From contig NZ_CP146064.1 of NCBI RefSeq assembly GCF_037013405.1, positions 772,254 to 804,253 of the forward strand: a stretch of 32,000 bases of DNA, given 5' to 3'. The translations under genes were made by a program, and so were the position numbers. Every line of letters begins with the position of its first letter. Position 1 is the stretch's first letter. The stretch is from Candidatus Nanosynbacter sp. BB002 (lineage in GTDB: Bacteria > Patescibacteriota > Saccharimonadia > Saccharimonadales > Saccharimonadaceae). Below, one piece after another: positions 1 to 12,477 of this stretch. A model generated the notes under the pieces. The model was not told where the DNA came from. It was given only the letters and a program-made list of their open reading frames with translations, and did no database searches.

Positions 1-643
1 CCTTATTGTTTACAAGTATTACGTTTATGTATTCTGGTAACTTATACGACAATAGAGTTATACCCACCATCTCAATCGTCCTTGATACTGCTGTAAATAT
101 CTGTTTTGCGCTTTCTTGGTTATTGAAATCTGGAACATTCTTCTTATTTCTAAAATCTCCGTCATGCTCATTTCCATTACGGTTGTCACGCAGATGATCC
201 TGCCAGTTCCGCTTCTGAATATCAATAAATGATTTCAAGTCGCCCACCTCAGGATGTCGCCTAATAAAGCCACTCATTTGCTGTTCATAGTCCTTACCCG
301 CAAATATACATCCTATATCATATCCAAATGATCTAGTAAAATTTACGAGCCTATCCTTATAGGCGCTCCATAGGCAATTATAGAGTGAGTTATAAACTGC
401 AGCTATTTCAGAGCTGGGCCGCGAATTAAAACCACTTTCTACCACCACCTTGTAGTGATTCCTTGCTTCAAGGAGTTTTTCATAGATACGATCCGCGCAG
501 AAATCAGCCTCATCTCTAATCTTGTCATTCTCTATTTTTTCTGCAGCTTTCTTAAATAGAAACCAAATACTCTCTACTTCTGGGTCACTAGGATTCCATT
601 CTGCCCTTAATGAAAAAGTAAACTGTGTTTTATTAACTATCAT
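1..643 (-). CDS. Hypothetical protein with its C-terminus cut by the window edge (at least 214 aa). Probable third gene of the ATPase/RloB cassette. Contains an Rx4H (RNWQDH) HEPN-like motif.
   Basis: This ORF is absent from the supplied track because it runs off the left edge. Hand translation of the minus strand from ATG 643..641 gives 214 sense codons with no stop down to position 2 (MIVNKTQFTFSLRAEWNPSDPEVESIWFLFKKAAEKIENDK...QKRNWQDHLRDNRNGNEHDGDF...LPEYINVILVNNK). An in-frame stop lies just upstream at 668..670. It is co-oriented with the RloB-like gene and starts 43 nt after it, with no hairpin between. I recognise no family. Confidence 0.55.
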   Translation of the reverse strand, partial: MIVNKTQFTFSLRAEWNPSDPEVESIWFLFKKAAEKIENDKIRDEADFCADRIYEKLLEARNHYKVVVESGFNSRPSSEIAAVYNSLYNCLWSAYKDRLVNFTRSFGYDIGCIFAGKDYEQQMSGFIRRHPEVGDLKSFIDIQKRNWQDHLRDNRNGNEHDGDFRNKKNVPDFNNQESAKQIFTAVSRTIEMVGITLLSYKLPEYINVILVNNK

Positions 644-686
644 ACGGTTAATTGCCTTGATCAATATCTATTCTTTTCCGTTATTC

Positions 687-1313
687 TCACTTTAGTTTAA
701 GCAATCTCTCTACAAGCATAAAAACAGTAGTGGAGGGGTCGGCATTGGCAGGGTCATTCTTATCGCTCAATCTATATAGCTTCTTCGCATTTCGGATCGC
801 AACACCTATCTTATCTTCAAGTTTGTCATACATTGACTGATCGTTCTTTTTATAGGCACCCATGATCTCTCTCAGCTTAACGATGTAATCAGAGCGTAAT
901 ATTTGAGTGTCACAGTAATTAAAATGTAACAAATACCAAAGTTCAAATGCATCATTAGAATATGCAACCCGCACTCCATTAGTTTTTGCTTTTTCAATCG
1001 CAGAGTTGAATAAAGCAACGTCACTAGGGTTTGCTCTATTCTTATCCCTGTCAAATACACACCAAACCTCTTCGTAATCGCCATCTTCTTCCATCAAGGC
1101 TAGTGCCCTATCGACTACGCTAGTATGTACCGCCCCTGCTGGCTCTATAACTACATTCATGGTTCTAACCTTAAATCCCTTAAAATAGTTTGGCTCCGTC
1201 TTTGTCCCCTCACAAACGATAAGAATTCGCGGTTTAACCTCACGGTTTGCTGATTTTCTAGAAAGTCGACTCCTACCCCTAGAGCGCTCCCATGCTTTTG
1301 CCCTCCTACTCAT
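687..1313 (-). CDS. RloB-like / AbiLii-like protein (OLD/TOPRIM-type putative nuclease)
   Basis: 208 aa. It carries the hallmark 'ILIVCEGTKTEPNYF' (conserved TOPRIM Glu) and 'VWCVFDRDK' (DxD). Its start is 9 nt downstream of the ATPase stop. Confidence 0.75.
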   Translation of the reverse strand: MSRRAKAWERSRGRSRLSRKSANREVKPRILIVCEGTKTEPNYFKGFKVRTMNVVIEPAGAVHTSVVDRALALMEEDGDYEEVWCVFDRDKNRANPSDVALFNSAIEKAKTNGVRVAYSNDAFELWYLLHFNYCDTQILRSDYIVKLREIMGAYKKNDQSMYDKLEDKIGVAIRNAKKLYRLSDKNDPANADPSTTVFMLVERLLKLK

Positions 1314-1322
1314 TATGTTAAT

Positions 1323-2597
1323 CTATAAACTATTAAAATCCCCTATATATGGTATTGCGCCATATCTACCATTTATATAATCTTTCTGAAATGAGGCATC
1401 TTTTCGAGGCTTATATTCCAACAATGAATATAAATGAGAGGAACCATACTTATCCTTTTCTGTGAACCAGATCTGGTCTCTTCTAAAATGGTTTCCTCGT
1501 AGAAGATTAGTGTCGTGGGTTGTAAATATTAACTGTGCATTCTTTTTATTACTCGTCTTTGAATTGAAAAGTTTTACAATCTCTTTCGTTACGAGTGGAT
1601 GAAGTTTTGACTCAAGTTCATCTACGACGATTGTTTTGCCAGTTTCAAGCGACTGAGCCAAACTTCCTGCTAAGGCAAATAATTTTTTAGTACCATCAGA
1701 CTCTTGCCGCCGAAGATCAAACTCTTCAATACCCGACTCTTTACCGTTTTCATAAGCCTTACGACGAGTGATAATTCGGGGTGGCGCTTTTCCCCCACCT
1801 TCTTTTTCAAGGAGTGCATTTACACTCTCAATAAAAGCCCTCACTTGGTCAGATATCTCCAAATCAGCAGGTATCGCAATGGGCACGAAATCTCGCTCCT
1901 CGATAGCGATATCTTCAATTTGAACATCAAATCTATGAAGGATATCAAGGACCTGTTTCTTTCTCTTTTTACCGCTCTTGCCTTCTTCTAAGAGCATATC
2001 AGCAGTATTACTCAAATTAGAGTCTAACCCGCTCATAACAGACATATCCTCAAACCACTCCATGATAGATTGAGTAATGCTTGCACCATTAAGCTGAGCT
2101 ACAAATGATAAAAATAGTTTATCCTCTTTGATGCTATCGCTTAATCTTCTCCCCTCTCTAAATGAACGGCCAATAGTTATGTTTTGTTTTTCTCGAGTAA
2201 AAAGGGATGCTTCTCTGGTCGTCGGAACATAAAACAACCATTCTGACAAGATACTCTTTCTGTCAATCTCAAAGCCATATCTATATCTTATATTATCCTT
2301 CATAAAAATTATTTCAAAGAAGCTTGGCTCATCTTTCATAGTTCTATCAAGCTTATAAGCACAATTGCGTATTGGAGATTCCCCTAATACAAGATTTCGC
2401 ATAAAACCAATTGCTCGAACAAAATTTGTCTTGCCGCTACCATTGGCACCATAAACGGCCGCACTCTTAAGAACGCGCCTATTGTTAACTGGAAAAGTAT
2501 TATCGTCTTCATGTGTCTTATCATTTGAAGCAAGCATACTAAATTCGGCCATTTCTTTAAATGATAGGCAGTTTGCAGTTCTAAATTCTATGAGCAT
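1323..2597 (-). CDS. ABC/SMC-like AAA_21-type ATPase (RloA / AbiLi-like)
   Basis: Motifs are Walker A 'GANGSGKTNF', signature-like 'ESDGTKKLF', Walker B 'IVVDELESKLHP' and 'FTTHD'. The C-terminal 'RDQIWFTEKD...GRYGAIP' is typical of this family. I moved the start from the track ATG (2645) to ATG 2597, which has AAGGAG (2604..2609) 6 nt upstream. The track start lies inside the predicted -35 box. Confidence 0.8.
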   Translation of the reverse strand: MLIEFRTANCLSFKEMAEFSMLASNDKTHEDDNTFPVNNRRVLKSAAVYGANGSGKTNFVRAIGFMRNLVLGESPIRNCAYKLDRTMKDEPSFFEIIFMKDNIRYRYGFEIDRKSILSEWLFYVPTTREASLFTREKQNITIGRSFREGRRLSDSIKEDKLFLSFVAQLNGASITQSIMEWFEDMSVMSGLDSNLSNTADMLLEEGKSGKKRKKQVLDILHRFDVQIEDIAIEERDFVPIAIPADLEISDQVRAFIESVNALLEKEGGGKAPPRIITRRKAYENGKESGIEEFDLRRQESDGTKKLFALAGSLAQSLETGKTIVVDELESKLHPLVTKEIVKLFNSKTSNKKNAQLIFTTHDTNLLRGNHFRRDQIWFTEKDKYGSSHLYSLLEYKPRKDASFQKDYINGRYGAIPYIGDFNSL

Positions 2598-2616
2598 AAA
2601 TTTCTCCTTACCTGAA

Positions 2617-2645
2617 ATTATACCAAAATATACACTAAAATGCAA
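2617..2645 (-). promoter_or_regulatory. Sigma70-type promoter with extended -10 for the ATPase/RloB cassette
   Basis: The minus strand reads TTGCAT (2645..2640), N17, then TGgTATAAT (2625..2617). The -10 box ends about 19 nt before ATG 2597, and the SD lies in between. Confidence 0.55.
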
Positions 2646-2746
2646 TAATTTGAGATTATTTCACAAATATACTGTTTTAAATCAATTTATAAGTCTTAAT
2701 TCGTTATTTAAGCTTTTTTACAGCCCCACCCACTATACTCACCGAC

Positions 2747-3199
2747 ATGAATATTCGCAAACAACTCACCACCTTTGCCACCATCGGTGTTCTCAATACC
2801 GCCATTGACATCACAATATACACCCTATTGATATGGCTCACCGTGCCGCTACTATTGGCCGTCATCATGTCAACCACCATAGGGATGATCTGCAGCTATT
2901 TTCTAAATAAGCGCTTCACCTTCAAAACCGACCGCCAGCCAATTGTCCAGTTTATCGGTATCACCCTCACTGGCCTGTGGGTTTTACAACCAACTGCCAT
3001 ATGGCTACTTATCCAACTGTTCGGAATAACCAGCACTTTTGGTTTGAGCATAGCAAAATTAGCCGCCACTAGCATCAGTCTGGTGTGGAATTTTGTATGG
3101 TACCGAATCGTATTTCGAGGAACAAAGAAAAAACACCTCCGTAGACGTGTCTTTTCTTGGCTCCGGCAGCTGGGCTCGAACCAGCGACCTATTGGTTAA
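2747..3199 (+). CDS. GtrA-family small polytopic membrane protein (putative polyprenyl-phosphate-sugar translocase)
   Basis: 150 aa with four hydrophobic segments. N-terminal 'FATIGVLNTAIDITIYTLLIW' and 'YFLNKRFTFK' match the GtrA-like pattern. The last ~25 codons (Lys/Arg-rich) run through a terminator hairpin and 42 nt of the antisense tRNA-Asn before the first stop. Confidence 0.75.
   Translation: MNIRKQLTTFATIGVLNTAIDITIYTLLIWLTVPLLLAVIMSTTIGMICSYFLNKRFTFKTDRQPIVQFIGITLTGLWVLQPTAIWLLIQLFGITSTFGLSIAKLAATSISLVWNFVWYRIVFRGTKKKHLRRRVFSWLRQLGSNQRPIG
3128..3155 (-). terminator. Intrinsic terminator immediately after tRNA-Asn
   Basis: The minus-strand RNA reads AAAAGACAC, a 10-nt loop, then GUGUUUUUU (9-bp stem with one G.U), followed by CUUUGUU. 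It starts 3 nt after the tRNA CCA end. Confidence 0.55.
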
Positions 3200-3232
3200 C
3201 AGCCAACCGCTCTACCACTGAGCTATGCCGGA
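3158..3232 (-). tRNA. tRNA-Asn (anticodon GTT), CCA encoded
   Basis: The minus-strand sequence is TCCGGCATAGCTCAGTGGTAGAGCGGTTGGCTGTTAACCAATAGGTCGCTGGTTCGAGCCCAGCTGCCGGAGCCA. It folds by hand into a cloverleaf: 7-bp acceptor stem, D arm GCTC/GAGC, anticodon loop CTGTTAA and T arm GCTGG-TTCGAGC-CCAGC. Total length is 75 nt. Confidence 0.95.
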
Positions 3233-3245
3233 ATACCGTATTGCC

Positions 3246-3274
3246 ATTGTACCGTATCATGACATTATTGTAAA
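3246..3274 (-). promoter_or_regulatory. Sigma70-type promoter for tRNA-Asn
   Basis: The minus strand reads TTTACA (3274..3269), N17, then TACAAT (3251..3246). The -10 box ends 13 nt before the mature tRNA 5' end. Confidence 0.6.
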
Positions 3275-3293
3275 GAACTGAATTATGGTTATA

Positions 3294-3650
3294 TTAGGCA
3301 CCTTTGACAATATCCAAAGCTTTTCTCAGGATGGCAGCTTCCTCATGAGCCGCCTCATCCGCCGCGGCCTCACGTTTTTTGGCTTCTTGCTCCAGATGAT
3401 ACCACCATGGCTTGGTCGCGCCAGTAGTATCAACCTCGTGATTGATACCAAGCTCCAGTGACCTGGCTTTACCCTCTCGTTTAATCAAGGCTCCCTGTGC
3501 CACCAAACCGTCAATGTGCTTGGCTACTGTTGAGACTGATTTATAGCCCAAAGCCTGCATTATCTCTCGAAACGTTGGGCTATATCCCTGTCCGCTGATG
3601 AATCCTTCAATAAAATCTAGTAGTTGTTTTTGCTTTTTTGTTAGTTTCAT
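3294..3650 (-). CDS. LexA-type winged-helix DNA-binding-domain protein that lacks the S24 peptidase domain
   Basis: 118 aa. Residues 1-67 (MKLTKKQKQLLDFIEGFISGQGYSPTFREIMQALGYKSVSTVAKHIDGLVAQGALIKREGKARSLEL) align by eye to the LexA N-terminal domains of E. coli and B. subtilis. The C-terminal ~45 aa form a charged Ala/Glu-rich helix. There is no Ala-Gly cleavage site and no Ser/Lys dyad region. Confidence 0.75.
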   Translation of the reverse strand: MKLTKKQKQLLDFIEGFISGQGYSPTFREIMQALGYKSVSTVAKHIDGLVAQGALIKREGKARSLELGINHEVDTTGATKPWWYHLEQEAKKREAAADEAAHEEAAILRKALDIVKGA

Positions 3651-3705: not shown

Positions 3706-4719
3706 ATGAAGATTTTGTTGACTGGTGGTGCAGGTTATATCGGTTCTCATACCGCCATTGAGCTGATTCACAGCGGACACGAGGTGATTATTATGGATGA
3801 TCTGTCGAACAGCTCAGCGGAAGTGATACGACGCATTGAGCACATCACCAAAACGACCGTTCCGTTTGTAGAGGCAGATGTGCGTGACAAAGCGGCGCTA
3901 GAAGAGGTATTTGCTAACCAACAGATTGATGCCGTCATTCATTTTGCCGGATTTAAAGCTGTTGGTGAGTCAGTCGCCAAACCCCTGGAGTATTATGACA
4001 ATAATCTCATCTCAAGTCTGGTTCTTTTGGAAACCATGAAAAAACATCATGTTAACAAAATTGTTTTCTCCAGTTCAGCCACTGTCTATGGCAATCCAGA
4101 GTCTCTGCCACTGACAGAAGAATCACCAACTGGCCGAGGAATTACCAATCCATATGGCCAGACTAAGTTCATGATTGAGCAGATTTTACAAGATGCCGCG
4201 GTCGCCAACCCAGAGTTGGAGGTTTCTATTTTGCGCTATTTCAACCCCATCGGCGCGCACGCATCAGGAACCATTGGTGAAGATCCAAACGGCATCCCAA
4301 ACAACCTACTACCATACGTTGCGCAAGTGGCAGTTGGTAAACTGAATGAAGTTGGTGTGTTCGGTGATGACTATGACACACCTGATGGTACCGGTGTGCG
4401 TGACTATATCCACGTAGTCGATTTGGCGCGTGGTCACGTAGCAGCGCTGGAGCACATGAAGTCAGGCGTGAATATCTATAACCTTGGTACAGGACATGGT
4501 ACCTCTGTTCTGGAGATCATTAAAGCCTTCTCTCAAGCCTCTGGCCACGACATTCCTTATGTCATCAAGACTCGTCGCCCTGGTGATTTGGCAGCTTGCT
4601 ACGCCAATTGCGATAAAGCCCAACGAGAGCTCAACTGGAAAGCTGAATTATCTGTTGAGCAAGCCTGCCAAGACACCTGGAACTGGCAAAGTAATAATCC
4701 AAACGGCTACCACTCATAA
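3706..4719 (+). CDS. galE: UDP-glucose 4-epimerase
   Basis: 337 aa with 'MKILLTGGAGYIGSH', 'YGQTKFMIEQ' (YxxxK) and 'RYFNPIGAH'. I trimmed the start from the track's 3598 to the SD-preceded ATG at 3706. Confidence 0.9.
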   Translation: MKILLTGGAGYIGSHTAIELIHSGHEVIIMDDLSNSSAEVIRRIEHITKTTVPFVEADVRDKAALEEVFANQQIDAVIHFAGFKAVGESVAKPLEYYDNNLISSLVLLETMKKHHVNKIVFSSSATVYGNPESLPLTEESPTGRGITNPYGQTKFMIEQILQDAAVANPELEVSILRYFNPIGAHASGTIGEDPNGIPNNLLPYVAQVAVGKLNEVGVFGDDYDTPDGTGVRDYIHVVDLARGHVAALEHMKSGVNIYNLGTGHGTSVLEIIKAFSQASGHDIPYVIKTRRPGDLAACYANCDKAQRELNWKAELSVEQACQDTWNWQSNNPNGYHS

Positions 4720-4739
4720 GACGCTTTGCGCACTGAACC

Positions 4740-4767
4740 AAAACCAGCGGCTACTACCGCTGGTTTT
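4740..4767. terminator. Bidirectional intrinsic terminator between the convergent galE and LCP genes
   Basis: The sequence is AAAACCAGCGG-ctacta-CCGCTGGTTTT: a 7-bp GC-rich stem extended by an A4/T4 run, with U-tracts on both strands. The LCP stop codon (4754..4756) sits in the loop. Confidence 0.7.
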
Positions 4768-6460
4768 CTGTACCGAGGACGATGACAATGTCAGCGTTAT
4801 ACTTACTGATGGTTGGCGGGATGGTAGTTACAACATTAGTGCCATAGGTTTGCTTCAATTTTTCAATGGTCTTTGGTTTCGTACCGTTACTTAGGTCGTA
4901 GATAGTGTGTTTAGCTTGGACGCCGCCCGGATAGTTGCCAACCTGGACCACATTTAACTCTTGTTTAGTTAATTTCGTCTGTTCGGCGGCCGCCACCCCG
5001 GCGATACCAGATCCATTCAATATCACCAGTCTCGCTTCCTCGTTCATCTCAGCTGTTGGGCTGATGCGTTTTTTAACATAATTTTTAATGGCCGTGTAGT
5101 TATAGGTTCCAGCAGTCGGCACCACCACACTGGCGCCTGCGATATTGGAGGTTGTCAGTAGCTGTACCTTATTTTTCTCGTCAACCAGTGGTATTGAGAC
5201 AATCTTTTCGGCATTAAACTCCTTCAAAATTTCAACGATGGTCTGCATCTCTTTGGTTTCAAAGTTGGTGTTAATGTTATTACCCAATGCATCGATAATC
5301 CCCATCATGACGTTGAAATCTGCTTTGTTGGATGTTTTGGCTTTCTCGACGATGGCTTTGATAATTTTTTGCTGGTTACGCTCACGGTCAAAGTTACCGC
5401 CACTCAATCCAATTCCTCCAGCACTACCACGGGCACGGCTAAATGCCAAGGCTTGCTCACCATTCATGTGAACTGTCTCACCGTTACGGTAGCGGATTTT
5501 TGTAGCCACGTCGTACACCATTGATGAGCCGTCGTAGGCCTCAACCTTCACGTCGATTCCACCAAGTGCATTAACCACCTCAGTAAGCACGCGCCAGTTA
5601 GCGTGCACTTTGTAGTGGATTTCCATACCCAATACCTCTTGAGCAGCTTTGGCGATCTCTGCCTGTCCAGCCTGTTCACTAGCAGCTTGGTCCTTGCCGC
5701 TGTCTTTGGCGTCTTGTTTACCACAGCCATAACTCTCGTTTAGCTTTCCGGCGGTAGTTTTCAGCCAAGACTGACAGGTGTGCTTTACGTACAGATCTCG
5801 CGGCAGAGACACAGTGTAGGCGTCCTTATTGTCCTGGTGATAAGACAATACCATGATGGAGTCAGCCAAATCAGCACCCTCCCAGCCATCAGGCGACGTA
5901 CCAAAAATCAAAACATTTGTACGGCCGTTATCATCCTGTTTAAGTCGTGTTTTCGTAAACAACCCAAGGATATCTCCACCAACAACTCGCGATAGATTGT
6001 TATATAGTCGCCATGCCTGAAAGCCCAAAAATATCAGTAGTGGAATTAATATTATCAGTATAATGCGCTTGATGAGTCGTCGCTTTTTGAACTGCTCAAA
6101 CGACAGCGGTTTTTTGTTCTTTTTCTCACGCTTTTTGTTAAGCTTTTCGAGCTTCTTTTCTGCTTTGAGACGCTTCTGCTCTTTTTTATCTGGTTCTGGT
6201 CGGACTGGTCGCTGCGGCTGATTATCAATTTCTCGCAGACTAGCTTGTATATCATTATCTTCAGGAAATGGACGCTGAAGTTGTTGTGGTTGCTGAAAAT
6301 TTTGCGGAGCAACTGGAGTATGTCGCGGCTGCATACCATCAATAGCAACCGGTCTACCCACTCGTCTTGGAGCGTTAATACCGGGTTTATTCCCGACTCG
6401 CTCTGGTCGTCGACCAGCAGGAATGAAACCATCAACTGATATATTCGGCTTTTTCATCAA
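4754..6460 (-). CDS. LytR-CpsA-Psr (LCP) family glycopolymer-peptidoglycan ligase with a C-terminal LytR_C domain
   Basis: 568 aa. It has one TM segment (about residues 131-150). The LCP core shows 'LIFGTSPDGWEGADLADSIMVLS' and 'NGEQALAFSRAR'. The C-terminal 'RLVILNGSGIAGVAA...IVIVLG' is LytR_C-like. The N-terminal ~130 aa are Pro/Gln/Lys-rich low complexity. Confidence 0.8.
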   Translation of the reverse strand: MMKKPNISVDGFIPAGRRPERVGNKPGINAPRRVGRPVAIDGMQPRHTPVAPQNFQQPQQLQRPFPEDNDIQASLREIDNQPQRPVRPEPDKKEQKRLKAEKKLEKLNKKREKKNKKPLSFEQFKKRRLIKRIILIILIPLLIFLGFQAWRLYNNLSRVVGGDILGLFTKTRLKQDDNGRTNVLIFGTSPDGWEGADLADSIMVLSYHQDNKDAYTVSLPRDLYVKHTCQSWLKTTAGKLNESYGCGKQDAKDSGKDQAASEQAGQAEIAKAAQEVLGMEIHYKVHANWRVLTEVVNALGGIDVKVEAYDGSSMVYDVATKIRYRNGETVHMNGEQALAFSRARGSAGGIGLSGGNFDRERNQQKIIKAIVEKAKTSNKADFNVMMGIIDALGNNINTNFETKEMQTIVEILKEFNAEKIVSIPLVDEKNKVQLLTTSNIAGASVVVPTAGTYNYTAIKNYVKKRISPTAEMNEEARLVILNGSGIAGVAAAEQTKLTKQELNVVQVGNYPGGVQAKHTIYDLSNGTKPKTIEKLKQTYGTNVVTTIPPTISKYNADIVIVLGTENQR

Positions 6461-7874
6461 CTCTATCTATTATAGCAAACATAAGCATTGCAACAAAATA
6501 AATATGAAGTGCGTTTGGCAGCCCTGAAAAGAACATCCACTGGAGGACAAACCCTAGTATAATTGGCCAGGCTAGCGCTTTTTTGACGGACATTTTTCGA
6601 CATAAAGCCAGCAGTAGAGATGTCAATAATACAACACCTACAATCCCCAATTCCACTGCCACAGACAAGAATTCATTTTGGACGATTTCAAATTCGCCGC
6701 TCGTCTTGCCAGACTGTTGAAAAATAGCACGTCCTGCGCCACCCGCACCCACACCAACGAGGAACTGTACCGGGTTTTTTGTCCAAACCTCCAAAGCAAG
6801 TTGCGACATACCAGTTCGCTCCTCTGTCGACTTCGCGACATAGCCATCAAACACTGCTTTCGGTGGCGAGTCTGGCATTGCCTGTTGTGAGCTGGCTGCT
6901 GAGGTATTCTCTTGAGGCGGTTGCTGGGGTGTCAGGTCTGGTAAACTAATCTTTCCTAATGATAGATGGTTGATCGATTTGGTGATTGATTGATAAAACC
7001 CATCAGCTACCCTGGGGTTAAGCTGTGTAAAGACTCCGTGCCACATCATACCAAAGGCAAAGCTACCCACGAGCACCATGACAACCACAGCCGAGGACCG
7101 TAGCCAGTTGGTCGATGTACGCCAATTTACTAGTACTACCTGCACCAGCACTGCTGCCATCACTGCATACAGTGCGCCGCGGCTTAGTGTGAGATATAGC
7201 GCCACAAACATCAAACAGAGAGCAACTATGTCATATTTCGTGGCTTTGTTTTGTAGTAGTCGGTAGGAGACTAGTAAAATTGGCGCAATCAATAGGCTCC
7301 CAAAAAACTGTGGTTCAATAGCAAAACCACTGGGGCGCACAAACCCAAATCCTCGCGCTACACACCCATTGCATAACCCCCAATCAAACCAAGCGCCGTA
7401 CGCCACCTGGATAATTGCTAGCAAACTCATCACCACCGCGGTCATAACAGTAACGCTCATCAGCGGACCAACCATTTTCTTGAGCGACGGCAAGCTATAT
7501 ATCACCAGAAAATCGAGAAATAACACACTCCAGAGGCCATTTACAAGGATTGACCTCAGAGGGTTAACTGACCATATGATACTGAGGAGATTCCAACCCA
7601 CAAATACAGCTAGTAGCCAGACAGCTTTTTGTCGCCAGAGAAATTGCCGATGATTCCAAATTTGCGGCAATCCCACTAGTGCCAAAACTACTGCGTAAAT
7701 GACGGCGATTGATAGTTCCAAATTCGTACCGCTTTGCCGACCAAAAGAGATGGTCGGAATATACGAAAACCACAGCGCCACGGGGGCTAATAGCACTAGC
7801 TTCTCCGTGACGCTAGCCGCTACCAGCCACGACGGCAAGCTCTGTCTCACTCTATTTACCAGTCGCATCATCAA
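6432..7874 (-). CDS. O-antigen ligase / Wzy-like polytopic membrane protein
   Basis: 480 aa with about 10-12 hydrophobic segments. It has the 'YLTLSRGALYAV' motif typical of the Wzy_C/O-antigen-ligase family and a Pro/Gln/Ser-rich loop. It overlaps its neighbours by 29 and 23 nt. Confidence 0.65.
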   Translation of the reverse strand: MMMRLVNRVRQSLPSWLVAASVTEKLVLLAPVALWFSYIPTISFGRQSGTNLELSIAVIYAVVLALVGLPQIWNHRQFLWRQKAVWLLAVFVGWNLLSIIWSVNPLRSILVNGLWSVLFLDFLVIYSLPSLKKMVGPLMSVTVMTAVVMSLLAIIQVAYGAWFDWGLCNGCVARGFGFVRPSGFAIEPQFFGSLLIAPILLVSYRLLQNKATKYDIVALCLMFVALYLTLSRGALYAVMAAVLVQVVLVNWRTSTNWLRSSAVVVMVLVGSFAFGMMWHGVFTQLNPRVADGFYQSITKSINHLSLGKISLPDLTPQQPPQENTSAASSQQAMPDSPPKAVFDGYVAKSTEERTGMSQLALEVWTKNPVQFLVGVGAGGAGRAIFQQSGKTSGEFEIVQNEFLSVAVELGIVGVVLLTSLLLALCRKMSVKKALAWPIILGFVLQWMFFSGLPNALHIYFVAMLMFAIIDRVDEKAEYIS

Positions 7875-8991
7875 CTATCCGCTGTAGCTCCTGCTTAAAC
7901 CTCGCGTCCGAAAAATCCTTCGCCGATGCCGAGACCTGCTGTTTATGAAACGTCATACCGTCAAATCGTTGCATTGCCGCTACCAAACTTTCAACTGTCT
8001 GCTCGTCAAAGAACGTGCCATTTTTCCCTTCGTGAATATAATCCAGCGCCCCACCTTGTTTCAAAGCGATCACCGGCACGCCAGCGCTCAGCGCTTCAAT
8101 TGGCGCAATACCAAATGGCTCAATGCTTGGAAAAATAAATCCTTTTGCCTGGGATACCAAGGCGTTCAACTCCTCAGGATTATCAATGCGTGGGATAAAT
8201 CTAATGAGTGGACTATCTCCCGCCAGCTGCTGCAAAATGCCGTGTTCTGCGCCATCACCCACCAACACCAGCCGCTTGCCTGACAACAAACACGCTTTGA
8301 TAGCAATATCTAGACGCTTCCAGTTAACCTGCCGAGAGGTAGTGATGAAAAATTCTTCTTTGGAATTAGCAGTCGAACCAATAGTAAATTTATCGACTTC
8401 CACCGGTGGAAACAACACCTGAGCGGACCGATTATAGTACTTTTTAGTTTCGGCAGCCGAATACGACGAGTTAGCGACCAGCACTGTTGGTCGCTGGGCA
8501 AATTTCCAATCAATCTTGCGCAGCGGCCCAACCAATAGCTTAAAAAAGAACCGTACGATGAAGTTCAGTTTACCAAAGCCAGGGTTTTTGACATAGTCAT
8601 CATACATCCCCCAAAAATACTGCGTCGGCGGACCTTGTAAATAGCAAATTCCTGTCTGATGTGGATAAAGTTTGATACCCTTACTTTCTGCCGTACAAAC
8701 GGTGATGATGATGTCATAGTGACGCAACCGACGATGTAACCGGTTGAAATAGAGCGCCCTGGGTACCGCCAAAATCTTCCTGAGGCGAGCAGGAAAGATA
8801 TTCACCCAACCAACATGAACTTGGCAATCATTAAACCAATTTATCTGCTTGCGAGAGTACTGAGAGGTGAAAATAGGTGCGTCAGGGAATAGTTCATGGA
8901 TGGATTTGACTACTTTCTCCGCTCCGCCATAGGTCGTCAGCCAATCACAAACAATGGCAACGCGCGGCACTTCCCGACCCTCAGAAGCCAT
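7852..8991 (-). CDS. GT4-family (GT-B) glycosyltransferase
   Basis: 'RVAIVCDWLTTYGGAEKV' at the N-terminus and 'FIFPSIEPFGIAPIEALSAGVPVIA' (EX7E region). I chose ATG 8991 as the start because it overlaps the upstream stop as TGATG (translational coupling). The track start at 9057 would add 22 aa that overlap the upstream gene. Confidence 0.75.
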   Translation of the reverse strand: MASEGREVPRVAIVCDWLTTYGGAEKVVKSIHELFPDAPIFTSQYSRKQINWFNDCQVHVGWVNIFPARLRKILAVPRALYFNRLHRRLRHYDIIITVCTAESKGIKLYPHQTGICYLQGPPTQYFWGMYDDYVKNPGFGKLNFIVRFFFKLLVGPLRKIDWKFAQRPTVLVANSSYSAAETKKYYNRSAQVLFPPVEVDKFTIGSTANSKEEFFITTSRQVNWKRLDIAIKACLLSGKRLVLVGDGAEHGILQQLAGDSPLIRFIPRIDNPEELNALVSQAKGFIFPSIEPFGIAPIEALSAGVPVIALKQGGALDYIHEGKNGTFFDEQTVESLVAAMQRFDGMTFHKQQVSASAKDFSDARFKQELQRIVDDATGK

Positions 8992-10397
8992 CACCGAGCT
9001 CCCCGCTGGAACAACACCATCCCAAACGTCTTTACCAAAATACGAATATCCAACCACAACGACCAGTTCTGTACGTAGTACACATCAAGCTGACGTCGCT
9101 CTTCAAAACTAATATCGCGCCTGCCAGACACCTGCGCCAAACCAGTTAAACCTGATTTCACTGCCAAAATGGTGTCTTTACGTTTGTATTGATTGATCTC
9201 TTGAGGGATCAAAGCCCGTGGGCCAACCAATGAGATATCACCTTTGACGACATTCAGTAGTTGCGGCAATTCATCCAGCGAGGTTGCCCGAAGAAATCGT
9301 CCCAACCGAGTGATGCGTGGATCATTGTCTAGTTGATCGCCATTATCACGGTATTGTTTGATCAGCTCTGGACGGCCCATCATGGTAAAGGCCTCTTCAG
9401 GAGTTGTGCCGTTATATTTGGACTTTTGTGAGCGGAACTTATAGATCCTAAACTCGCGGTTAAACCGTGTCAACCTGGTTTGACGGAAGAAAACTGCTTC
9501 ACGTGGGGCGCTCAATTTCATGATGATAGCAACCAACAACATGATTGGTGAGAGCAGCAGTAGCGCCACACTACCAACCACGATGTCCATCAAGCGCTTC
9601 CAGACTCGACCAATCCCAAACAACTGGGTTGCCTGAATTTCTATGATTGGTAGTCCAGCAATGATCTCCACGCTATTCATTTTGGACACCATCCGATCTT
9701 GCTGCGGCACAAACATATAGGTCAGGTGGTTTGACAAAGCGTAGTGATAGACCTCTTGGGACCGTGTGATGTCAGTTTGCATGATGATAGCTGGGTGAAC
9801 TGATTCTACTGCTGTTTTGAAATTCTTAAAGGTTTCAACCCCTTTACCACCATAGCCAGCCACGACACCAACGACATCATAGCCATAATTGATATGTTTG
9901 CCAAAATATTCTGCCAACTCAACAGTTTTGTCATTATCACCAACAATCAACACCTTTTGCCGACCAAAGCCGCGCAAGATCAAAACACTATTGATCAATT
10001 TCACAATCTCACGACCAAGAATCATCAAGATAAAGTTGATGACCACAAAGTATACTGCAATGATTCGTACCGGAAACACATCTTCGCCAGTGAAAAATTC
10101 ATAAGAAATCAGTGCCATCACACTAATCACCGAAGTCAACAGCACACGCATATACTCTTTGGGGCGCGACAAAAATATTTCTCGGTTATACAGCCCAGAC
10201 AAGGCATTGACTATCAGCCACAGTGGTAACAAAGCGACGATCAGCACGACAAAGTTACGAATTTGCGGCACAAAGTAATACACGCGGGTGTCCAGGTGAG
10301 TTCGGTAATAATAAGCTAGCGCAAATGACAGCACCACCATCGCAACATCAGCCAGCAAGAGTAACGCTTTTGAGGTAAACAGGAAATCGCGTTTCAT
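8991..10397 (-). CDS. Polyprenyl-phosphate hexose-1-phosphate transferase (WbaP/CpsE-type initiating sugar transferase)
   Basis: 468 aa. The N-terminus has TM segments, the centre has a Rossmann-like 'KVLIVGDND', and the C-terminal catalytic domain shows 'DELPQLLNVVKGDISLVGPRA...SGLTGLAQV'. Confidence 0.85.
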   Translation of the reverse strand: MKRDFLFTSKALLLLADVAMVVLSFALAYYYRTHLDTRVYYFVPQIRNFVVLIVALLPLWLIVNALSGLYNREIFLSRPKEYMRVLLTSVISVMALISYEFFTGEDVFPVRIIAVYFVVINFILMILGREIVKLINSVLILRGFGRQKVLIVGDNDKTVELAEYFGKHINYGYDVVGVVAGYGGKGVETFKNFKTAVESVHPAIIMQTDITRSQEVYHYALSNHLTYMFVPQQDRMVSKMNSVEIIAGLPIIEIQATQLFGIGRVWKRLMDIVVGSVALLLLSPIMLLVAIIMKLSAPREAVFFRQTRLTRFNREFRIYKFRSQKSKYNGTTPEEAFTMMGRPELIKQYRDNGDQLDNDPRITRLGRFLRATSLDELPQLLNVVKGDISLVGPRALIPQEINQYKRKDTILAVKSGLTGLAQVSGRRDISFEERRQLDVYYVQNWSLWLDIRILVKTFGMVLFQRGAR

Positions 10398-10417
10398 AGT
10401 GCTATTTTACCCCTTAA

Positions 10418-11410
10418 TCACTGAAATCCCAAGGCTTTCTTGATGCGATTCACTTGCTTCAATGGAAGACCGTGATATAACAGTGACTTGATGTAAGTAT
10501 TTGAGACGGTTTTAGTCTTTTGAATACGGCGGCGCTTAGCCAGTGATTTTGGCCACAGGCCTATGCTTTGTATAAATCCTTTGACCGCAAATTTAAAGCC
10601 ACCTTTTGGTATTTGGTACACCATGAACATGAAATATATGAGCGTAAATTTGAACCACATCGGTATGATCATAGGAAATGGTACATTTTTCCAGAATACC
10701 TGCGGCAAGTTTTTAAACACTTGGTTGATGGTAAAGCCAGGAATTTTGGAGCTTGTTGCTGAGTGTTTATGGAAAACTACCGCAGTTTTTTCATACCACA
10801 CTTTCCAGCCGACTAGTTGCATACGCCATGAAATATCAACGTCTTCATTGTACGCGAAAAAGTCCTCGTCAAAGAAGCCAATCTGCTGAAAAACTTTGGT
10901 GCGATACAAGGTTGCTCCACCCGTTGCCCCAAAAAGTAAGCCACTGTCAGGTGCTTGGTCTTTTGGTAAATGCTCCGCACGCAGCGCTGGAATACCCCAG
11001 GTAGAGTACTCATCACCTGCGTCATCGATGAACTTGCCAGTAGTATCTAACATCAAGCTAGTAACCGCGCCAACCTCTGGTTTTTGCTCAAGAGCGCCCG
11101 CCAAATTTTTCAACCAGTCTGGTTCTGGAGCCGCATCATTGTTCAACAAAGCCACCGCATCAAATCCCTGTTCAATAGCCCAACGAATTCCAATATTAAC
11201 CCCGCCAGTAAAGCCAGTATTGTTTGGCTCTTGATGAAAATGGAGATTTTTTATCTTGATTTTCGATAATTCTTTAACCGAATCATCACCCGACCCATTG
11301 TCTATCAAATATATCTCAAAATCTTCATGCGTCTGCTTTTTCATAGCAGCCAAACATTTCTTCGTGTCCTGCCAGCCTTTATAATTCAAAATAACCACTG
11401 CGGCTCTCAT
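10418..11410 (-). CDS. GT2-family glycosyltransferase (rhamnosyltransferase-like) with C-terminal membrane segments
   Basis: 'AAVVILNYKGWQDTKKCL', 'IYLIDNGSGDDS' and 'LLNNDA' fit the GT-A DxD region. I set the start at ATG 11410, which has AGGAG (11416..11420) 5 nt upstream. Confidence 0.75.
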   Translation of the reverse strand: MRAAVVILNYKGWQDTKKCLAAMKKQTHEDFEIYLIDNGSGDDSVKELSKIKIKNLHFHQEPNNTGFTGGVNIGIRWAIEQGFDAVALLNNDAAPEPDWLKNLAGALEQKPEVGAVTSLMLDTTGKFIDDAGDEYSTWGIPALRAEHLPKDQAPDSGLLFGATGGATLYRTKVFQQIGFFDEDFFAYNEDVDISWRMQLVGWKVWYEKTAVVFHKHSATSSKIPGFTINQVFKNLPQVFWKNVPFPMIIPMWFKFTLIYFMFMVYQIPKGGFKFAVKGFIQSIGLWPKSLAKRRRIQKTKTVSNTYIKSLLYHGLPLKQVNRIKKALGFQ

Positions 11411-11427
11411 ATCATCTCCTGTTTTAG

Positions 11428-12477
<1,050 letters not shown>

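Follow-up and report, generated by a model that had tools for sequence, protein, structure and literature searches.

A predicted AbiL pair and a candidate HEPN-like gene, probably brought together by deletion, in Candidatus Saccharibacteria

AbiL is a two-component system that pairs an ABC-ATPase with a TOPRIM/OLD protein, which a 2026 review groups with PARIS and whose mechanism is still open (PMC13064643); the trigger-released tRNA nuclease mechanism is that of PARIS and is undemonstrated for AbiL (PMC13064643). The logic of two genes, one for an ATPase and one for a TOPRIM/OLD protein, is common to AbiL, PARIS (AriA/AriB) and the RloA/RloB genes of type I restriction-modification (R-M) loci. 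HEPN RNases, as described by Anantharaman et al. (PMC3710099), carry an Rx4-6H motif where helix 3 ends, with a polar residue following the arginine, as well as inserts between helices 2 and 3. The present study concerns a cassette of three co-oriented minus-strand open reading frames (ORFs) occupying the left end (1..2645) of a 32,000-nt stretch of the genome of Candidatus Nanosynbacter sp. BB002 (contig NZ_CP146064.1, positions 772,254 to 804,253), hereafter the window. In the direction of transcription, these ORFs encode an ABC/SMC-like ATPase (gene 1), a RloB/TOPRIM-like protein (gene 2) and a protein outside the annotated families (gene 3; Table 1). The explanation that we regard as probable is that an ordinary AbiL pair (genes 1 and 2) stands beside a separate HEPN-like gene (gene 3), which was placed next to it by the deletion of a gene for a TPR+HEPN_LA2681 protein (hereafter LA2681), and that the two modules are probably co-transcribed.

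Genes 1 and 2 are predicted to constitute a canonical two-gene AbiL pair, since they gave full-length matches to AAA_21/AbiLi and RloB/AbiLii, respectively, and their catalytic motifs are all present. Gene 1 matched AAA_21 in Pfam (1.1e-44, residues 46-366), AbiLi in PADLOC (PDLC02335, 4.7e-102), more weakly AriA (1.7e-41), and PHROG 5836 in PHROGs (3e-82). Its translation contains a Walker A motif (GANGSGKT), a signature motif (SDGTKK), a Walker B motif (VVDELE) and an H-loop region (FTTHD), and the two Walker motifs are set apart by a helical insertion, as in ABC/SMC-like AAA_21 ATPases of the AbiLi type. The gene begins with an ATG at 2597 after a Shine-Dalgarno-like sequence, and it was called at the same length of 424 aa on 10 related contigs (L001-L010). 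Gene 2 matched RloB in Pfam along the whole profile (3.8e-47, positions 1-195 of 195) as well as AbiLii in PADLOC (1.8e-32), and its translation holds ILIVCEGTKTEPNYF, the FDRD acidic motif and the glutamate of ILIVCEG, in agreement with the TOPRIM-type acidic residues of AbiLii/RloB proteins. Relatives of this RloB protein numbered 5915 at E<=1e-10, and the PF13707 annotation was carried by all of the best 120 listed. The two genes follow each other on the same strand with a gap of 9 nt (1314..1322), and the AbiLi-AbiLii pair also occurs on L001-L010, L017 and L024-L035. The original prediction had described three minus-strand genes with 9- and 43-nt gaps, the first two being an ATPase and RloB/TOPRIM pair of the AbiL kind; the gaps agree with the ORF read (the second of them at 644..686, between genes 2 and 3), the identity of the pair with the Pfam and PADLOC matches, and every motif quoted for genes 1 and 2 was found in the translations. 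The hmmscan check proposed with it, which expected AAA_21 on gene 1 and RloB on gene 2, returned both.

The pair shares with AbiL of the Lactococcus plasmid pND861 the adjacent and co-oriented order of an AAA_21 ATPase followed by a RloB/TOPRIM-like protein, and both PADLOC models match strongly. In contrast to pND861 AbiL, the window pair is chromosomal in Saccharibacteria, lies beside a tRNA-Asn gene and is followed by a HEPN-like gene. Despite the likeness of gene 1 to AriA, the locus differs from PARIS in that the AbiLii of the window is a RloB protein (PF13707), whereas AriB is of the DUF4435 type. It also differs from the RloA/RloB genes of type I R-M loci, as the window pair is without flanking R-M genes.

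Gene 3 had originally been proposed as the third component of an AbiL variant, with homologues that would accompany ATPase/RloB pairs in other genomes. The contexts of gene 3, which were drawn from genome, metagenome and assembly collections and scored for AbiLi, AbiLii and other neighbours, did not bear this out. Direct adjacency of AbiLii and gene 3 was confined to one Saccharibacteria clade, in which gene 3 is at least 86% identical to that of the window and the order is AbiLi-AbiLii-gene 3 (L001-10, L017, L024-33, L035). At 72-76% identity, a gene for a 510-aa LA2681 protein (PF18733, 1.6e-29) stands between AbiLii and gene 3, with its start codon overlapping the AbiLii stop codon (ATGA; L019, L034, L050). 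LA2681 was also encoded directly before gene 3 behind a HerA fragment (77%, L018), behind a Y-family polymerase with a Pfam IMS domain (63%, L054, where a methylase and an SNF2 helicase follow) and behind AAA_13 in a Legionellales genome (50%, L013/L020). In L052 (66%), gene 3 follows DUF8426/NucS_C, and at 49-63% identity (L011, L021, L022, L016, L036, L037) neither AbiL nor LA2681 was present, and the neighbours included a KAP NTPase, an ABC ATPase, DUF5677 (L016), aspS (L036) and superoxide dismutase (L037). No AbiL was found within 5-8 kb of distant gene 3 homologues. Likewise, the family hidden Markov model (HMM) found no gene 3 with the nearest AbiLii relatives, of which the 76% identical one has an AAA_13 gene after it and those at 59 and 56% identity have unrelated, convergent genes there, and none with three plasmid AbiL pairs. 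Gene 3 homologues other than close ones are without AbiL, AbiL relatives are without gene 3, and the expected co-occurrence across lineages largely failed to appear. Gene 3 is probably not an AbiL component, and a conserved linkage to AbiL is lacking.

The 43-nt spacer between AbiLii and gene 3 carries traces of how the two genes became neighbours. Its first part corresponds to the initial ~35 nt of the LA2681 gene (24/25 bases match L018:813-838) and includes a nine-codon remnant ORF, (M)RITEKNRY, comparable with MSVTER... in L050. Its last part, from the final ~12 nt of the region that contains the LA2681 gene in sister lineages, aligns with the AATTAA...ATG leader found ahead of gene 3 in the five-gene loci. 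The LA2681 gene measures 1.5 kb in sister lineages, and ~45 nt of its ends are left in the window. Because both ends of the LA2681 gene have homology in the spacer, the adjacency of AbiLii and gene 3 is read as a deletion scar, and because other lineages and phyla have the LA2681-gene 3 pair in the absence of AbiL, LA2681 would have been lost rather than inserted. The window-type and the five-gene arrangements both adjoin the same tRNA-Asn. As such, the ancestral order would have been AbiLi-AbiLii-LA2681-gene 3, from which a 1.5-kb deletion removed LA2681 and left gene 3 43 nt behind AbiLii. From the contexts together with this remnant, the window appears to hold a plain two-gene AbiL beside a separate defence-like gene.

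Gene 3 has remained intact since that loss. Among nine window-type copies, the ORFs were all intact and the ratio of nonsynonymous to synonymous substitution rates (dN/dS) was 0.12-0.33 at a synonymous divergence (dS) of up to 0.42; gene 3 is under purifying selection and, being intact and selected after the loss of LA2681, is functional without it. That gene 3 is instead a true third component of an AbiL variant, for instance an RNase effector or sensor recruited by the ATPase-TOPRIM complex, is a reading we consider unlikely, even though the 43-nt gap on the same strand holds no terminator or listed promoter, the trio is conserved over dS ~0.4 on upwards of 20 contigs while purifying selection acts on gene 3, and sister loci link AbiLii and HEPN genes by overlapping stop and start codons. 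It has to contend with an adjacency that came from deletion, with gene 3 homologues that mostly lack AbiL, and with AbiL relatives (56-76% identity) and plasmid AbiL pairs that lack gene 3. The census also disagrees with it, as one and the same database yielded 5915 RloB relatives at E<=1e-10 and 44 gene 3 clusters; a separate profile search gave 102 of the latter at 50% identity.

Since the window edge cuts gene 3, its full length of 244 aa was taken from contigs L001-L010, which carry an identical gene 2. The protein went unmatched in Pfam, PADLOC, NCBIfam and PHROGs alike, and gave only chance-level matches against PDB sequence profiles. A search of 5.8 billion proteins placed the family in ~44 clusters at 90% identity, and a profile search among 1.84 billion representatives found 102 clusters at 50% identity; tblastn found no gene 3 in plasmid and phage collections, and a scan of viral contigs found no relative. 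Gene 3 thus belongs to a rare, unannotated family that is absent from curated libraries. In an alignment of 53 members that are 15-45% identical, R155 was the sole invariant residue, while N156 and H160 were conserved in at least 90% of the members, giving an R-N-x3-4-H motif with R-x4-H or R-x5-H spacing; a LW.AYKDR helix upstream of the motif was also prominent. AlphaFold (AF2) models were available for P0001, which is 92% identical to the window protein (predicted local distance difference test, pLDDT, 87), and for a divergent member (pLDDT 96.3). For this all-alpha family, the models show a helix at the N-terminus, a pair of long helices, a short helical insert and a last long helix, and end in a C-terminal beta-hairpin. 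In the model of pLDDT 96, the motif closes helix 131-158, which the last long helix follows, and a short helical insert (107-127) separates helices 2 and 3.

These features point to the HEPN RNases. Gene 3 has a conserved motif within the Rx4-6H range and a polar residue directly after the arginine, and in the models the position of the motif fits the HEPN description at the level of secondary structure. With HepT, Apea-like and LA2681-like RNases, gene 3 shares R-N-x3-4-H and a defence-island context and, judged by the secondary structure of the models, would also share the location of this motif where core helix 3 stops, an up-down helical bundle and an insert that parts helices 2 and 3, whereas it differs from them in its larger size (~240 aa), its N-terminal helix, long helix pair and C-terminal beta-hairpin, and its position outside the Pfam HEPN models. 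HEPN_Apea gave sub-threshold matches in 14/37 members (best E 3.6e-4). Moreover, hhalign of the gene 3 family against a 25-sequence LA2681 HEPN profile aligned RNxxEH with RNALTH, together with the preceding helix (P=0.008). When the pLDDT-96 model was compared with the PDB by Foldseek, the top two matches were an AMPylated HEPN toxin (8xdj_B/C, E 0.17-0.19), and HepT (6m6u_D) reached a target-normalised template modelling (TM) score of 0.58; the pLDDT-87 model had no significant match in the PDB or BFVD. Gene 3 is probably a candidate new HEPN-like RNase of the metal-independent kind.

The usual partner of gene 3, where it has one, would be the TPR+HEPN_LA2681 protein (Anantharaman et al. 2013, PMC3710099) encoded directly upstream, a recurrent neighbour in sister loci that is gone from the window. 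The LA2681 gene (~510 aa) is followed 11-16 nt on by a gene 3 homologue in five contexts from two phyla, Saccharibacteria and Legionellales (LA2681 at L019:4807-6339, L050:3454-4986, L018:807-2339, L054:3463-4989 and L013:4438-5988), and this pair, for which PADLOC has no entry, may represent a two-HEPN module of the defence or toxin type. The tightness of this pair would also agree with gene 3 being the antitoxin or immunity partner of the LA2681 toxin, left in the window as an orphan such as an anti-addiction gene, and a gene that persists alone would be safe if it encoded an antitoxin. This seems quite unlikely to us, since an invariant R-N-x-H motif of catalytic type would be unexpected in a mere neutraliser, most of the LA2681 loci examined are without gene 3 and carry a split TPR gene instead, and many gene 3 homologues are without LA2681 nearby. 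Very unlikely, in our view, is a non-enzymatic helical protein, that is, a regulator or scaffold unrelated to defence that happens to lie in a variable region: the lack of a significant fold or family match and the housekeeping neighbours of some homologues (aspS in L036, superoxide dismutase in L037) would be in keeping with it, whereas most contexts hold genes of defence type (AbiL, HerA, AAA_13, KAP NTPase, HEPN, DUF5677, or a methylase together with an SNF2 helicase), and an enzyme is favoured by the three conserved polar residues and by the matches that lean towards HEPN.

Under the favoured reading of an ordinary AbiL pair beside a separate HEPN-like gene, the window would encode two independent modules. 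In the first, by analogy with PARIS, the AbiLi ATPase would keep the AbiLii nuclease inactive until a phage cue frees the nuclease. The second would consist of gene 3, most likely a divergent HEPN-type metal-independent RNase of 244 aa from a rare family. As gene 3 is still kept by selection, it would act independently, probably as a homodimer with RNase or RNA-binding function and not as a third AbiL subunit.

Several results weigh against this reading. Membership of gene 3 in HEPN lies below significance in every single test: the HEPN Pfam matches fall below the gathering score, the hhalign probability was 5% with the 25-sequence LA2681 profile and 0.5% with a 4-sequence alignment, and the Foldseek E values exceeded 0.1 throughout. 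Furthermore, the trio is stable across a clade with dS ~0.4, so that a secondary co-option of gene 3 by AbiL is possible, and the ATGA overlap of AbiLii and LA2681 in the five-gene loci could mean that AbiL and the HEPN genes are functionally coupled and not just adjacent. In a composite reading, gene 3 would found a new HEPN-like family and be a portable RNase placed behind various sensor or NTPase genes (TPR-HEPN_LA2681, AbiL, AAA_13, HerA and NucS_C-like); in this clade it would serve as a co-opted second effector arm transcribed from the AbiL promoter, so that AbiL activation and RNA cleavage by gene 3 would be joined in a three-gene system produced by the deletion. We give this reading a low probability.

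For the defence repertoire of Saccharibacteria, the AbiL pair is an incremental addition of an abortive-infection-type system built from an ATPase and a TOPRIM protein. Gene 3 is the more useful by-product, combining a conserved unannotated family with a catalytic-looking RNx3-4H motif, confident models and a repeated setting in defence loci; if gene 3 is indeed an RNase, the LA2681-gene 3 pair becomes a candidate two-HEPN defence or toxin module. The locus also counsels caution towards operon variants called from adjacency alone, as a deletion can mimic a three-gene system from two modules.

Other arrangements were noted around relatives of the genes under study. The closest non-identical AbiL pair (L060:2721-7257, also on L061 and L062) is the one whose AbiLii is 76% identical; the start of an 875-aa AAA_13 ATPase gene abuts or overlaps the AbiLii end there (both at 4630), and the set is indexed in 87 collection blocks. 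This may represent either an alternative combination of AbiL and an ATPase or a further defence gene that occupies that slot. A distant relative of gene 3 (25-30% identity; L040:7887-10182, also on L041, L042 and L044) is followed 22 nt on by a gene for a 521-aa protein with no family match, near HD-domain-like and kinase-like proteins as judged from their sequences alone, and may represent another defence context for the gene 3 family. In addition, a ~190-aa protein with no family match is encoded downstream of gene 3 in L019:7146-7718, L034:8797-9351 and L018:3100-3701 and holds MRNHIRHDMRDNLTHE, another Rx4H-like motif; a three-gene module of LA2681, gene 3 and this protein was considered and dropped, because the protein is not conserved in L050 or L054.

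Table 1. Features of the window and their coordinates
Feature	Position	Strand	Description
Gene 3	1..643, cut by window edge	-	residues 1-214 of 244 aa
Spacer AbiLii/gene 3	644..686	-	putative deletion scar; alignments of junctions
Gene 2, AbiLii/RloB TOPRIM-like protein, 208 aa	687..1313	-	Pfam RloB, PADLOC AbiLii
Gene 1, AbiLi-type ABC/SMC-like ATPase, 424 aa	1323..2597	-	AAA_21, PADLOC AbiLi
Cassette leader	2598..2645	-	Shine-Dalgarno-like TAAGGAGAAA and promoter-like site
GtrA-family gene	2747-3199	+	flanks cassette on one side
tRNA-Asn(GTT)	3158..3232	-	ARAGORN and Rfam (72.4 bits); ~510 nt upstream of cassette
LexA-domain gene, 118 aa	3294-3650	-	LexA DNA-binding domain (1.4e-16), without peptidase domain
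Polysaccharide cluster	3706-12477		epimerase, LCP (LytR-CpsA-Psr family), Wzy_C, GT4, Bac_transf, GT2, dehydratase-type epimerase

In the leader, a promoter-like TTGCAT-N17-TGgTATAAT was found at 2645..2617, with a perfect extended -10 element (TGgTATAAT) at 2625..2617 and a weak -35 hexamer (TTGCAT). As the -35 hexamer fits only 3/6 consensus positions, the site was not listed by the consensus scan. Promoter-like sites in 1..3300 numbered 9 against 10.2 expected, which is not above chance, and the window contains 6 copies of the extended -10 pattern TGNTATAAT, where 1.95 would be expected. The strong private promoter originally proposed for the cassette is therefore present as a sequence, whereas the consensus scans do not support its strength. 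A scan for terminator-like sites found none inside or just after the cassette. Because neither a terminator nor a listed promoter intervenes, gene 3 is inferred to be read through from the AbiL promoter; the proposed co-transcription of the three genes is plausible.

The cassette contains 38.2% guanine plus cytosine (GC) compared with 43.3% for the window and lies in the most AT-rich stretch of the latter: no more than 0.7% of spans of 2645 nt have so low a value, with near rivals at 38.7-38.9%. Its description as AT-rich is thereby confirmed, and the reduced-genome epibiont suspected as its host is indeed a member of the Candidatus Saccharibacteria lineage. AbiL is preceded by the same tRNA-Asn 3' end in L001-3, L005, L007-9, L017, L024, L026 and L033, and also in the five-gene locus L019, and the tRNA gene marks a variable locus that holds both the window-type and the five-gene arrangements. 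Downstream of tRNA-Asn, related genomes carry GtrA with or without other small ORFs, and a three-gene or five-gene defence set, so that the region resembles a hot spot for defence genes. The search for att-like repeats near tRNA-Asn found none, and its 3' end is single in each locus examined. An integrated island with att repeats was dropped on this ground, and without a second copy of the tRNA-Asn end an island boundary is not definable.

The cassette appears to sit inside a set of surface-glycan modification genes, beside the larger polysaccharide cluster. Besides the GtrA-family gene on one side, a fused GT2/PMT_2 glycosyltransferase (L001:3364-5952) is encoded downstream of gene 3, beyond the window edge. 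Between the tRNA and the epimerase gene stands the LexA-domain gene, which is kept on the related contigs L005, L007 and L008.

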